From UHGV virus genome UHGV-0293321: DNA of 16,182 nucleotides; one strand, 5' to 3'. This DNA comes from a virus. Shown here one piece after another: positions 3,181-7,655 of this stretch; within the stretch, counting starts at the first letter, position 1, and every line of letters starts with the position of its first letter. Under the pieces are notes generated by a model. The model saw nothing but the letters and a program-made list of their open reading frames with translations. It did not search any database and had not been told where the DNA came from. Made by a program: the position numbers and the translations under genes.

Positions 3181-3252
3181 ATGTCAGCAGAAGGTTTCAA
3201 TAACCCATCAAAATTCCGGGATGAGTGGGATAGCAGCGTAAAGAGTAAGTGA
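3181..3252 (+). CDS. Candidate micro-ORF (23 aa, MSAEGFNNPSKFRDEWDSSVKSK) with consensus Shine-Dalgarno
   Basis: AAGGAG at 3170-3175, 5 nt spacer, ATG at 3181, TGA at 3250-3252. Lies between the two repeat copies. Too short to judge by composition. Confidence 0.2.
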   Translation: MSAEGFNNPSKFRDEWDSSVKSK

Positions 3253-3295
3253 TGCCATCACAAAAGCCATTCCCTACAGAGTGGCTTTGATAATG
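3245..3295 (+). repeat. Copy B of the imperfect direct repeat (GTAAGT, short hairpin, TTGATAATG)
   Basis: GTAAGT at 3245-3250, AAAGCC (3263-3268) / GGCTTT (3283-3288) stem, TTGATAATG ending at 3295. Confidence 0.45.
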
Positions 3296-3357
3296 GCTTA
3301 TACCCTACACGGGATAACTTAACTGATATCCCTTTTAACGGATAAACTGAGCCAACA

Positions 3358-3600
3358 ATGGCAGAGATTATTCCCATGACTGAAGAACAGAAATTCCAGT
3401 TAGAGATTTACAAACTGGTCATGAACCAGAACGCAGCCGCAGAAGAAGCATTTCAATTCATCGGCACTGACGAGTTGAAGCTTGAGCTATTCAAAATTCA
3501 CTTCCAGTCAGGCGGCGCTAATTCAGATATCACGACCCGCACAATCGAAGCGGTACGTAAATCGAAGGAAGCGTTAGACCTGTTTACTACCGGAGCATAA
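3358..3600 (+). CDS. Hypothetical small acidic protein (80 aa) immediately upstream of terS; same slot and length as P22 orf80
   Basis: ORF ends 2 nt before the terS start. Weak RBS; an alternative ATG at 3376. Homology to P22 orf80 is not verified, only position and length agree. Confidence 0.5.
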   Translation: MAEIIPMTEEQKFQLEIYKLVMNQNAAAEEAFQFIGTDELKLELFKIHFQSGGANSDITTRTIEAVRKSKEALDLFTTGA

Positions 3601-3602
3601 AC

Positions 3603-4043
3603 ATGGCGCGCCCAACAAAGTATCAAGAGGCGTACGCCGAACAGGCACGCAAACTGTGCTTGCTGGGCTACACCGATGCAGAGCTTGCTGATTTCTTCGA
3701 AGTCAGTGAGTCAACTATTAACAAGTGGAAGCTTGATTATCCTGAGTTTTCGGAGTCCATAAAAAAGGGTAAGGCCGTTGCTGATGCAGAAGTTAGTGAC
3801 CGTCTTTATCAACGCGCTATGGGCTTCGTGGCTCCAGACATCGATATTCGTGTTATTGAAAACAGAATTGTCGAAACTCCGCTTGAGAAGTATTACCCGC
3901 CTGATACAACCGCCGCCATCTTCTGGCTTAAGAACCGACAGAAGGATAAATGGCGCGACAAGGTTGATCACGAACTAACAGGCAAAGACGGCGGCGCAAT
4001 CCAGATTGAAACATCACCGATGAGTACTCTATTCGGAAAATGA
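3603..4043 (+). CDS. Terminase small subunit (146 aa), Sf6 gp1-like C-terminus with a different N-terminal DNA-binding domain
   Basis: C-terminal ...ELTGKDGGAIQIETSPMSTLFGK matches the Sf6 small terminase tail as recalled. N-terminal region looks like an HTH DNA-binding domain (ELADFFEVSESTINKW). GGAG RBS. Stop overlaps the terL start (ATGA). Confidence 0.8.
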   Translation: MARPTKYQEAYAEQARKLCLLGYTDAELADFFEVSESTINKWKLDYPEFSESIKKGKAVADAEVSDRLYQRAMGFVAPDIDIRVIENRIVETPLEKYYPPDTTAAIFWLKNRQKDKWRDKVDHELTGKDGGAIQIETSPMSTLFGK

Positions 4044-5455
4044 CCTCGATTAATCCTATCTTTGAACCGTTCATTGAGGCGCATCGCTACAAAGTCGCCA
4101 AAGGCGGTCGAGGTAGCGGTAAGTCATGGGCAATTGCGAGGCTGCTTGTTGAAGCGGCGCGCCGGCAGCCGGTGCGTATTCTCTGCGCTCGTGAACTGCA
4201 AAACAGTATCAGCGATTCGGTAATCCGTTTGCTTGAAGATACCATCGAGCGTGAAGGGTATTCGGCTGAGTTTGAAATTCAGCGTTCAATGATCCGTCAT
4301 CTCGGAACGAATGCTGAATTCATGTTCTACGGCATAAAAAACAACCCGACAAAAATTAAATCGCTCGAAGGTATTGATATCTGCTGGGTGGAGGAAGCGG
4401 AAGCGGTAACGAAGGAATCGTGGGATATTCTGATACCAACCATCCGTAAGCCGTTCTCTGAAATATGGGTAAGCTTCAACCCGAAAAACATCCTCGACGA
4501 TACCTATCAGCGATTCGTCGTAAACCCTCCTGATGATATTTGTCTGCTGACGGTGAACTACACCGACAACCCGCACTTTCCTGAAGTTCTCCGTCTGGAG
4601 ATGGAAGAGTGTAAACGCAGAAATCCGACACTGTATCGTCACATCTGGCTTGGTGAGCCAGTAAGCGCAAGTGATATGGCAATCATCAAACGTGAATGGC
4701 TTGAAGCCGCAACCGATGCGCACAAGAAACTCGGATGGAAAGCGAAAGGCGCTGTTGTCTCTGCGCATGACCCGTCAGATACAGGACCAGATGCTAAAGG
4801 TTATGCATCGCGTCACGGTTCGGTAGTTAAGCGCATTGCCGAAGGTCTGCTGATGGACATCAACGAGGGTGCTGACTGGGCTACTTCGCTGGCGATTGAA
4901 GACGGCGCTGACCACTACCTGTGGGATGGTGATGGTGTTGGTGCTGGGCTACGCAGACAGACAACGGAAGCGTTCTCCGGCAAGAAAATCACCGCCACGA
5001 TGTTCAAGGGCAGCGAATCGCCATTCGATGAAGATGCTCCGTATCAGGCCGGAGCATGGGCTGATGAAGTCGTACAGGGCGACAACGTTCGCACTATTGG
5101 CGATGTGTTCCGCAATAAGCGAGCGCAATTCTATTACGCGCTGGCTGACAGGCTGTATCTGACATATCGGGCGGTTGTCTACGGTGAGTATGCAGACCCC
5201 GACGACATGCTGAGTTTCGACAAAGAAGCGATAGGCGAGAAGATGCTGGAGAAGCTGTTTGCAGAACTGACGCAGATTCAGCGCAAATTCAATAACAACG
5301 GGAAGCTGGAGCTAATGACTAAGGTCGAAATGAAGCAGAAGCTCGGTATTCCATCTCCTAACCTGGCTGATGCGCTGATGATGTGTATGCATTGCCCGGA
5401 GTCGGCTGCGCAACCCGACTATTCCAGTTACTCAATTCCTTGTGGTGTAGGTTGA
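4040..5455 (+). CDS. Terminase large subunit (471 aa), headful-packaging type
   Basis: Walker A-like KGGRGSGKS near the N-terminus, with acidic nuclease-domain residues in the C-terminal half. Length and position match P22 gp2 / Sf6 gp2. Confidence 0.95.
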   Translation: MTSINPIFEPFIEAHRYKVAKGGRGSGKSWAIARLLVEAARRQPVRILCARELQNSISDSVIRLLEDTIEREGYSAEFEIQRSMIRHLGTNAEFMFYGIKNNPTKIKSLEGIDICWVEEAEAVTKESWDILIPTIRKPFSEIWVSFNPKNILDDTYQRFVVNPPDDICLLTVNYTDNPHFPEVLRLEMEECKRRNPTLYRHIWLGEPVSASDMAIIKREWLEAATDAHKKLGWKAKGAVVSAHDPSDTGPDAKGYASRHGSVVKRIAEGLLMDINEGADWATSLAIEDGADHYLWDGDGVGAGLRRQTTEAFSGKKITATMFKGSESPFDEDAPYQAGAWADEVVQGDNVRTIGDVFRNKRAQFYYALADRLYLTYRAVVYGEYADPDDMLSFDKEAIGEKMLEKLFAELTQIQRKFNNNGKLELMTKVEMKQKLGIPSPNLADALMMCMHCPESAAQPDYSSYSIPCGVG

Positions 5456-5456
5456 T

Positions 5457-7655
5457 ATGGCAGAAAAAAAGATGGCTGACTGGCATCGCAAGGTGCTGTG
5501 CAACTTTGATAATGCCTGGTCAGCAACGCAGGATATGCGTGAGCAGATTATTGAGGCTCAACGTTTCGTCAGGGTGTCCGGCGCACAGTGGGAAGGTAGC
5601 ACAAACGCTGGTTACTCGTTTGATGAGGGCAGGTTTGAGCATTACCCGCGTTTTGAACTGAATAAGATTGCCCGTGAATGTGATCGCATCATTGGCGAGT
5701 ATCGACAGAATCGCATCAGCGTTAAATTCAGGCCGAAGGATGACAAGGCATCGGAAGCGTTAGCCGAAAAGATGAACGGCAAATTCCGCGCTGACTATCA
5801 GGAAACATCCGGTGGTGAAGCGTGTGATAACGCATTTGATGATGCTGTAACGGGCGGATTCGGTTGTTTCCGCATGTGTGCCGATTACGAAGATGAAATG
5901 GATCCGAGTAACGAGCAGCGCCGCATCAGCCTTCTTCCTGTTTACGACCCAGCGACATGCGTCTTCTTCGATCAGGACAGCAAGCAATATGACCGCTCTG
6001 ATGCTATGTGGGCTATGGAAATGTTCTCCATGACGCCTAAAGCGTTCGAGGCTGAATACCCTGATTCCATCGCGGCAAGCCTTTCTCGTGATGACACTGG
6101 CACTCAATATGACTGGTCAACGCCTGATGCCATCTATGTTGGACGCTACTACGAAGTTCGCATAGAGAAGGTGAAGCTCACAGCATGGCGTAACCCTGTT
6201 AGCGGAGAAACGGCAATCTATGATGAAGAGCAAATCAAAGATATTGTTGACGAGCTAACCGATGGTGCATTCGAGCTGATCGGTGAGAGGACAGTGAAGA
6301 AACGCAGAGTTTATTGCGGTCTTCTGTCTGGCGCTGAATGGCTGGAAGAACCGAAGCGTATTCCGGGTGAACATATTCCTCTCATCCCGGTATATGGGCG
6401 TCGCTCATTTGTTGATAATCAGGAGCGAATCGAAGGCCACGCAGCAAAAGCGATGGATGCACAGCGTCTTGAGAACCTGATGGTTTCCATGATTGCAGAT
6501 AACGCTACTCAGGCTGGCGGTGATGGCATTCCTATCGTGGATGTTGATTTCATTCCCGGCCCATTAATGAATCACTGGGCAGAGAGGAATAAGAAAAGAC
6601 CTGCAGTTCTTCCCATGACCAGCAAGAAGGACAAAAACGGAACGGTCATTTCAGAGGCTCAGGTTGCTGGCTGGACACCTCCGACACAAATGCCTCCTGC
6701 TCTTGCCGGGCTATTGCAGTACACCGGAACGGCTATTCAGCAAATTACAGGTGCGTCGCAGCTTGAGAACATGCCGAGCAACGTCGCTACCGATACCGTT
6801 GATAGCATCTTTAACCGGATGGACACGCAGTCCTATATCTACATGGACAACATGGCTAAATCCATGCGCCGTGCTGGCGTCGTGTGGCTTTCTATGGCTC
6901 GTGAAGTCTATGGCAGTGATACGCCGATGCGTATCGTTAATGAGGACGGCAGCGATGACGTGGCGCTGATGACTGGTGAAGTGGTTGACCGTCAGACAGG
7001 GCAGGTTATCGCGCTTAATGACCTTTCGCAGGGTAACTATGAAGTGACTGTCGATGTTGGCCAGTCGTTCGCTACTCGCCGTGATGCAACGGTTAAGTCG
7101 TTACTTTCCATGCTGGCACTTATCCCACCAGGAACTCCGAAGCACGACCTTGTATCGTCGATGATTCTCGACAATATGGACGGCGAAGGGATGGACGACC
7201 TGAAAGAATACAACCGCAATCAGTTGCTTCTGTCTGGCGTTATCAAGCCGAGAACGCCTGAAGAGCAGCAGATGGTTGAACAGGCGAAACAACAACAGGC
7301 CAGTCAGCCAGATCCGGCTATGGTTGCAGCGCAAGGTCAGCTTCTTGCTGGTCAGGCTGAATTGCAGAAAGCGCAGAACGAACAGGCAGCCATTCAGGTT
7401 AAAGCATTCCAGGCACAGACTGATGCTCAGGTTGCAGCGGCAAATGTTGTGAAAATACTCGCATCTGCCGATAGCCAGCAGAAATCTGATATCCGCGAGG
7501 CTCTGAAACTGCTCGGACAGTTCCAGCAACAGCAAGGAGACAATGCCCGTGCTGATGCAGAGCTTGTCCTGAAAAGTCAGGCACAGGGCCATGCGCAGCG
7601 CATGGACATCAGCAGCATCCTGCAAAAATCAACCCGGCAACAACCACAGCAGTAA
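5457..7655 (+). CDS. Portal protein (732 aa), P22 gp1-like including the long C-terminal Q-rich barrel helix
   Basis: Blocks IPxVPVxG, RRVY and the C-terminal DPAMVxAQGxLLxGQAELxKAQN ... RMDIxxILQ match P22 portal as recalled. Confidence 0.95.
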   Translation: MAEKKMADWHRKVLCNFDNAWSATQDMREQIIEAQRFVRVSGAQWEGSTNAGYSFDEGRFEHYPRFELNKIARECDRIIGEYRQNRISVKFRPKDDKASEALAEKMNGKFRADYQETSGGEACDNAFDDAVTGGFGCFRMCADYEDEMDPSNEQRRISLLPVYDPATCVFFDQDSKQYDRSDAMWAMEMFSMTPKAFEAEYPDSIAASLSRDDTGTQYDWSTPDAIYVGRYYEVRIEKVKLTAWRNPVSGETAIYDEEQIKDIVDELTDGAFELIGERTVKKRRVYCGLLSGAEWLEEPKRIPGEHIPLIPVYGRRSFVDNQERIEGHAAKAMDAQRLENLMVSMIADNATQAGGDGIPIVDVDFIPGPLMNHWAERNKKRPAVLPMTSKKDKNGTVISEAQVAGWTPPTQMPPALAGLLQYTGTAIQQITGASQLENMPSNVATDTVDSIFNRMDTQSYIYMDNMAKSMRRAGVVWLSMAREVYGSDTPMRIVNEDGSDDVALMTGEVVDRQTGQVIALNDLSQGNYEVTVDVGQSFATRRDATVKSLLSMLALIPPGTPKHDLVSSMILDNMDGEGMDDLKEYNRNQLLLSGVIKPRTPEEQQMVEQAKQQQASQPDPAMVAAQGQLLAGQAELQKAQNEQAAIQVKAFQAQTDAQVAAANVVKILASADSQQKSDIREALKLLGQFQQQQGDNARADAELVLKSQAQGHAQRMDISSILQKSTRQQPQQ

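Follow-up and report, generated by a model that had tools for sequence, protein, structure and literature searches.

The 16,182-nucleotide (nt) stretch of UHGV virus genome UHGV-0293321 that we analysed, hereafter the window, carries a gene for a small terminase subunit (TerS; gene terS) at positions 3603-4043. The gene runs on the plus strand from an ATG start to a TGA stop and encodes 146 amino acids (aa). Our comparisons indicate that this TerS is most probably a natural chimera, in which a body of the type found in phage CUS-3 was joined by recombination to a C-terminal tail of the type found in phage Sf6.

A CUS-3-type body and an Sf6-type tail

We compared the window TerS with Sf6 gp1 on the protein and on the DNA level. 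BLASTP against Sf6 gp1 (from AF547987) gave an alignment of aa 116-146 only, with 26 of 31 residues identical (E 9e-16), and no pairwise alignment was obtained outside the tail (aa 1 to ~115). The final 20 residues (aa 127-146, GKDGGAIQIETSPMSTLFGK) are identical in the two proteins. When the whole of the PDB was searched by sequence at E<=10, Sf6 gp1 chains were the sole matches (aa 109-146, E 5e-11); P22 gp3 (3P9A) was not matched in this search. A first-pass annotation, made from the letters of the window and without database searches, had described the last ~25 residues as a near-exact copy of the Sf6 gp1 end, and the agreement is indeed far beyond chance.

Profile searches assigned the two proteins to different families. 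The PHROG profile phrog_309 matched aa 1-142 of the window TerS at E 2.1e-68, while phrog_1482, which Sf6 gp1 matches at E 2e-66, touched the window protein at aa 109-145 only. PF20901 (Sf6_terminase), carried by all Sf6-family proteins, gave no match in the window TerS at E<=0.1. The profile of the P22-type protein, PF16677 (GP3_package), scored 13.8 bits, below its cut-off of 29.4 (E 0.067).

On the DNA level, the gene is unalignable with Sf6 up to gene nt ~350. The two share GCGACAAGGT at nt 352-362, and from nt 379 the identity exceeds 95% and stays there through the stop codon into the gene for the large terminase subunit (TerL; gene terL), whose product is 99.8% identical to Sf6 gp2 over aa 1-453. 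Relatives with the same body and other tails, in turn, lose similarity to the window terS at gene nt ~360. Taken from both sides, these breakpoints place the crossover zone at window positions 3954-3981, at codons R118-D119-K120. The motif K[WY][RG]DK at the joint is the sole short motif common to both TerS families. By these alignments, the exchanged unit is the body (aa 1 to ~120) against the tail, not the DNA-binding domain against the remainder. Of the domain swapping proposed in the first-pass annotation, the joining of a different part by recombination is borne out by the step in nucleotide identity at nt ~379. The proposed unit is not: the part foreign to Sf6, which had been put at ~60 residues, extends from aa 1 to ~115-120 in both the BLASTP and the DNA alignments. 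The features of the locus are as follows.

3603-4043, plus strand: terS, small terminase subunit of CUS-3 type, 146 aa (open reading frame; 100% aa identity to CUS-3; PHROG 309)
3603-3962, plus strand: TerS body, aa 1-120, of PHROG 309 rather than Sf6 type (not aligned with Sf6 gp1 by BLASTP)
3627-3737, plus strand: predicted three-helix helix-turn-helix (HTH) DNA-binding domain, aa 9-45, putative pac-recognition module
3741-3953, plus strand: predicted oligomerisation core (helix 47-73, beta-hairpin 75-98, helices 102-117; AlphaFold2)
3747-3769, no strand assigned: nucleotide-conserved patch in terS, TTT TCG GAG TCC ATA AAA AAG GG, candidate pac core
3948-4040, plus strand: Sf6-type C-terminal tail, aa 116-146, putative TerL-docking or beta-barrel segment (BLASTP, PDB search)
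3954-3981, no strand assigned: crossover zone joining the CUS-3-type body to the Sf6-type tail with terL (nucleotide similarity breakpoints)
4040-5455, plus strand: terL, Sf6-type large terminase (aa 1-453 are 99.8% identical to Sf6 gp2)

Predicted structure and remote homology of the body

An AlphaFold2 monomer model was computed from 81 homologues, with a mean predicted local distance difference test score (pLDDT) of 88. The model has a three-helix HTH at aa 9-45 (pLDDT 94-97), where weak Pfam HTH matches were also found (aa 14-45), followed by a long helix (47-73), a beta-hairpin (75-98), helices (102-117) and an unstructured tail. This prediction matches the generic TerS layout of an N-terminal HTH, a helical core and a C-terminal tail. 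Foldseek returned Sf6 gp1 as the closest solved fold, and its top hits are TerS proteins. The second was 2AO9 (E 0.014-0.08), a protein of Bacillus cereus prophage phBC6A51 that is structurally alike at 15-16% identity.

With the tails removed, hhalign aligned the first ~70 residues of the two families collinearly, with a probability of 95-96%, E values of 1e-9 to 2e-8 and 19-22% identity. On this profile comparison, the DNA-binding domains of the window TerS and of Sf6 gp1 are remote homologues of the same fold, highly diverged. In full-length hhalign, the beta-hairpin region 75-98 was gapped against Sf6 gp1. The likeness to Sf6 gp1 (PDB 3HEF, 4DYC; PF20901; PHROG 1482) comprises the tail, the TerL partner, the TerS architecture and the remote HTH homology; on the other hand, the bodies are ~18-25% identical and related at the profile level only, the alignment with Sf6 lacks the ~24-residue predicted hairpin, and the DNA of a conserved patch described below differs.

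The HTH proposed in the first-pass annotation is accordingly supported, and it has no pairwise match in Sf6 gp1, but it is not a domain of separate origin. Alignment to Sf6 gp1 gave the tail only when done pairwise and collinear remote homology over the HTH region when done profile against profile. The Sf6-like oligomerisation region that had also been proposed was not recovered: aa 47-117 show no pairwise similarity to Sf6, belong to PHROG 309 and contain the predicted hairpin.

The remote homology bears on an alternative without any recombination, in which the window TerS is a vertically inherited, highly diverged orthologue of Sf6 gp1 whose TerL-binding tail was kept by purifying selection. 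The same domain order in both bodies, seen by hhalign and in the top Foldseek match, and the K[WY][RG]DK motif before the tail in both families are compatible with such descent. However, the tail and terL are more than 95% identical at the nucleotide level, synonymous sites included, and the DNA just upstream is unalignable; a step in nucleotide identity that includes synonymous sites cannot be produced by selection on the protein. Moreover, the body is 73-90% identical to the bodies of homologues that bear unrelated tails and adjoin other TerLs. We therefore consider vertical descent highly improbable.

A second alternative follows the first-pass annotation: the N-terminal ~60-aa DNA-binding domain alone was swapped onto an Sf6-type core and tail. 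There may be precedent for such an event, since Leavitt et al. (2013) reportedly described exchange of the DNA-binding domain only among P22-like phages. In the window TerS, BLASTP found no similarity to Sf6 gp1 in aa 60-115, and these residues are conserved jointly with aa 1-60 across PHROG 309. Nothing in Sf6 gp1 corresponds to the predicted beta-hairpin at 75-98, and the nucleotide junction lies at gene nt 352-379, not at ~180. As the BLASTP and DNA alignments with Sf6 place the break at the tail, the N-terminal-only swap was rejected; its probability is next to nil.

Tail types and their TerL partners

If the tail is exchanged against the body, other tails should be found on similar bodies. 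In an alignment of close relatives, the conserved body runs to ...FWLKNRQKDKWRDK and is followed by discrete, unrelated tails. At least eight tail types occurred among 14 loci, each adjoining a different TerL; the tail at locus L004, for example, is QEVEHTGEVSLIQRIQEARKRARGE. Bodies 88-90% identical to the window body precede TerLs that are 21%, 46% and 64% identical to the window TerL, with unrelated tails in each case. The Sf6 family likewise has a conserved body with varied tails. Four of the loci compared have a TerL with 86% or more identity to Sf6 gp2 (the window, Sf6, Atlantibacter L013 and Yersinia L014), and the Sf6-type tail was present in each of them. In our comparisons this tail adjoins Sf6-type TerL only, though the Sf6 body is just 18% identical to the others. 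Taken together, these sequence data support the view that the tail is a module travelling with terL.

In the general scheme of TerS, outer HTH domains read pac DNA, the helical core makes up the ring and the C-terminal strand or strands engage TerL (PMC9611059, PMC4872099). Swapping the C-terminal domain of gp16 between T4 and RB49 switches TerL specificity (PMC4872099), and binding of TerL by the TerS tail is known from work on T4/RB49, lambda and P22 (PMC4872099, PMC4669245). By analogy, the window TerS would work as follows. The body (aa 1 to ~120, the HTH and the helical core with its hairpin), drawn from the large cross-phylum PHROG 309 family, would form a ring oligomer and recognise its own pac site. 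The last ~26 residues, which would have arrived together with the adjacent terL from an Sf6-type packaging module, would form a C-terminal beta-barrel or tail that docks TerS onto the Sf6-type TerL. Headful packaging would start in or near terS; P22 packages by the headful mechanism from a pac site within gene 3 (PMC8022706).

The pac specificity is likely to differ from that of Sf6, as the first-pass annotation had proposed. A pac site inside terS, also suggested there, is plausible by analogy with P22 and Sf6. The Sf6 pac site reportedly lies in gene 1, within the coding region of the DNA-binding domain, and modular exchange of small terminases in P22-like phages, including exchange of the DNA-binding domain alone, is said to have been described (Leavitt et al. 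2013).

Two known systems offer parallels. In the engineered and natural C-terminal swaps of T4/RB49 gp16 and lambda/21 Nu1, TerL specificity resides in a short C-terminal segment that is exchangeable without the part that recognises DNA (PMC4872099, PMC4669245); these are, however, unrelated TerS families, and the exchange in the window is a natural one deduced from sequence. P22 gp3 (PDB 3P9A; PF16677) is a TerS of the same P22-like group, but the TerL of P22 is of a different type.

Several points qualify this picture. The tail and terL are contiguous, and linkage alone predicts their co-occurrence. In one pair of loci, L151 (Sf6-type body, SSDGSMTPKP tail) and L006 (CUS-3-type body, SDDGSMTPKAP tail), the tails are 48% identical and the TerLs 36%, which speaks neither for nor against a pairing of tail and TerL. 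The tail has a pLDDT of only 59-77 in the AlphaFold2 model, and this monomer model does not show the C-terminal parallel beta-barrel that goes with the octameric ring of Sf6-type TerS. As for a different pac specificity, hhalign equates R48 and K59 of Sf6 gp1, which we take to be DNA-contacting residues and for which the PDB contains R48A and K59E mutant entries, with K41 and S52 of the window TerS, so that a basic residue is retained at the R48 position of a remotely homologous domain. Finally, the DNA-binding specificity, the pac site, the oligomeric state and the TerL contact are all projected from other phages.

The first of these points would be expected if the tail had merely hitch-hiked, without any matching function, because the crossover that imported terL happened to fall a few codons before the terS stop. 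The coincidence of the crossover zone with a common 10-nt microhomology fits this as well. By contrast, the variable segment begins right after [RG]DK in both TerS families and comes in many discrete tail types, and a fixed start is what would be expected of a functional module boundary. C-terminal TerS segments set TerL specificity in T4/RB49, lambda/21 and P22 (PMC4872099, PMC4669245), and the pattern is repeated with the C-terminus of TerL and the portal. We consider hitch-hiking unlikely, and favour a tail that travels with terL as its partner.

A second joint was observed at window 5399-5455. Here the last 18 residues of TerL (aa 454-471, PESAAQPDYSSYSIPCGVG) and the portal gene at 5457-7655 are of a non-Sf6 type. 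The window portal shares 56% of its residues with the Sf6 portal and 83% with that of L006, and the L006 TerL, 64% identical to the window TerL overall, has the same C-terminal tail. Judged from these identities, the C-terminal tail of TerL travels with the downstream portal gene, as the TerS tail does with terL.

A conserved nucleotide patch inside terS

The body also contains a patch, codons 49-56 (3747-3769), whose conservation extends to the nucleotides themselves. All 58 unique alleles of 146 codons agree at gene nt 151-167 (GAGTCCATAAAAAAGGG, window 3753-3769), and these codons recur in homologues from other phyla down to ~45% identity. Its codon-level conservation was quantified in a deep set of 49 homologues, dereplicated at 85% nucleotide identity and with a G+C content of 36-63%. 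Codon 53 is NTA in 41 of the 49 (8.8 expected, z=12), codon 52 ends in C (NNC) in 45 (z=8.9), and codon 49 is TTT in 41 (z=8.4). All other columns had z<=4.7, and the next-ranked ones adjoin the patch. The consensus TTT-NNN-NAN-NCC-NTA-AAR (codons 49-54, 3747-3764), with TCC or GCC as its fourth codon, is kept in phages of Proteobacteria, Bacteroidota, Planctomycetota and Firmicutes. No second copy of the patch was found elsewhere in the window within 3 mismatches, and an Rfam scan of 3200-4400 returned nothing relevant.

Two explanations of the patch were tried and rejected. A conserved RNA hairpin was considered, given a folding z of -2.8 for the window RNA and the pairing of GGAGUCCAUA with the downstream UAUGGGCUUC, but at least five of the six pairs are present in only 11 of 48 homologues. 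An overlapping +1-frame reading frame ending at the conserved TAA was discarded because its upstream open length varies from 2 to 78 codons.

A third explanation applies to one variant of the patch. In the 'IKKGK' subfamily, 19 of 22 members have an in-frame A_AAA_AAR heptamer, and in 18 of these 19 a stop in the -1 frame follows within 1-14 codons. The window patch has the in-frame heptamer A_AAA_AAG followed by a -1-frame stop (GGG TAA); the candidate frameshift stretch is TCCATAAAAAAGGGTAAG. In this variant, the heptamer could allow -1 frameshifting and release a free DNA-binding domain of 56-70 residues. In the other subfamily NTA-AAG is conserved but forms no slippery run, and we regard frameshifting as the less likely reading.

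A site acting at the DNA level is the most economical reading of the patch. Going one step further, the patch may be the pac recognition core of the whole PHROG 309 TerS family, bound by the protein's own DNA-binding domain, a proposal that we put forward tentatively and regard as possible rather than probable. This candidate core lies within the coding sequence for the end of the DNA-binding domain, and transfer of the gene would therefore carry body and site along together.

As a control for locating pac by invariant runs, we used P22, whose known pac (gene-3 nt 268-289) falls inside the third-longest invariant run of 61 alleles; other segments are likewise invariant. The approach is consistent with this control but unspecific at shallow divergence.

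The 5' end of terS is also unusually constant. Of the 96 polymorphic sites that the 58 unique alleles show across the 441-nt gene, only 4 are within the first 68 nt, and the low-diversity segment (nt 7-68, window 3609-3670) includes invariant runs at nt 7-32 and 46-68 and a palindrome, GGCGTACGCC, at nt 27-36. This low synonymous diversity is confined to close relatives and was not seen in the deep homologue set, and we do not regard it as an element of the whole family; it may reflect constraints on translation initiation or a recent sweep. The start of the phage N7 record at terS nt 19 was considered as a clue to pac and rejected, because it copies the Sf6 coordinate convention.

Identity, distribution and annotation of the gene

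The window TerS is identical over all 146 residues to the CUS-3 TerS (ABQ88402) and to the proteins of FN394218, FN394994 and FN395002, and the gene is 98.6% identical at the nucleotide level to that of CP000711 (CUS-3). In CUS-3, the same protein has the same neighbours, an hkbM/DUF2560 gene upstream and an Sf6-type terL downstream. The full-length gene was found in 395 of 5426 complete Escherichia coli genomes. The protein is encoded on 321 IMG/VR contigs, and the downstream terL is of Sf6 type in 76-77 of the 78 loci compared. This terS is thus a common allele that has already been sequenced and named.

The body family is far larger. An exhaustive HMMER search at E<=1e-3 yielded 12,537 cluster representatives with the PHROG 309 body, most of the matches stopping at query residues 120-140. 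By tblastn, homologues of 50-60% identity were found in phages of Acinetobacter, Klebsiella, Salmonella, Vibrio, Riemerella and Pseudomonas, and homologues of 33-40% identity in Lactococcus, Streptococcus, Staphylococcus, Geobacillus and one archaeal virus.

Database names for these proteins vary. Phages phiv205-1, 611R6 and 683R2 have the TerS as 'HNH homing endonuclease', most RefSeq E. coli genomes list it as a 'hypothetical protein', and 'ubiquitin carboxyl-hydrolase' is a widespread name in NCBI for the Sf6-type TerS family. In Lactococcus phage ul36.k1t1 (H102, DQ394807 16187-16516), a homologue with 38% identity to the body bears the name 'putative activator of late transcription', a hint that some family members or paralogues may function as transcription factors or be taken for them.

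Such names ('HNH homing endonuclease', 'XRE-family regulator', 'activator of late transcription') would suit a protein that is an HTH transcription factor or a nuclease and no terminase subunit at all. Against this, the gene lies immediately upstream of terL, with the terS stop and the terL start overlapping as ATGA at 4040-4043, and no other TerS candidate exists between the lysis genes and terL. The PHROG 309 match (E 2e-68) is to a terminase small subunit, the protein carries the tail of Sf6 gp1, a crystallised TerS, and a Pfam scan detected neither an HNH nor a nuclease domain. A non-terminase role is very improbable, and the first-pass annotation of the gene as a small terminase is upheld by the family match, the tail and the overlap with terL.

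Two sets of database entries call for a remark. Short contigs in metagenome-assembled genomes labelled Collinsella or Bacillota (L010, L011 and L012) carry the E. coli prophage terS at 99-100% identity, and their placement there is probably binning contamination. One database allele of the same length (P0088) runs out of frame after an A-run (…SESIK RARPSLMQKLV…) and returns to frame ~40 codons on; this resembles compensating homopolymer indels, perhaps sequencing errors.

The locus and its source phage

In the window, the DUF2560 gene (3358-3600) is followed by terS, by the Terminase_3 gene terL at 4040-5455 (Pfam match E 3e-41) and by a P22-type portal gene (E 4e-170). By their overlap terS and terL are translationally coupled, and in 14 relatives terS is placed likewise, directly upstream of terL. 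The DUF2560 (hkbM-like) gene also directly precedes the CUS-3-type body in L004-L007, despite their differing tail and TerL types; as this gene is constant upstream, the left edge of the exchanged unit lies farther upstream.

The closest genome matches are vB_EcoP-720R6, Kapi1 and CUS-3, with 94-96% identity across 76-84% of the window. By these matches, the window is a P22-like (Lederbergvirus) phage or prophage of E. coli. CUS-3 covers 76% of the window at 95.8% identity, which makes the source phage, on the present comparison, a related mosaic distinct from CUS-3 itself.

Significance

The protein and its body/tail modularity are already known: the CUS-3 TerS is in GenBank and is common in E. 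coli prophages. What the locus offers is a clean natural case of the re-assortment of packaging modules in phages, with a crossover that appears to sit just where a DNA-recognising, ring-forming part would give way to the short tail accompanying the motor protein. The TerL tail and the portal, one gene further on, follow the same logic. The conserved patch is the sole item that could lead somewhere new. If it is pac, packaging-initiation sites would become predictable from sequence for thousands of phages and prophages, and hot-spots of generalised or lateral transduction would be predictable likewise.
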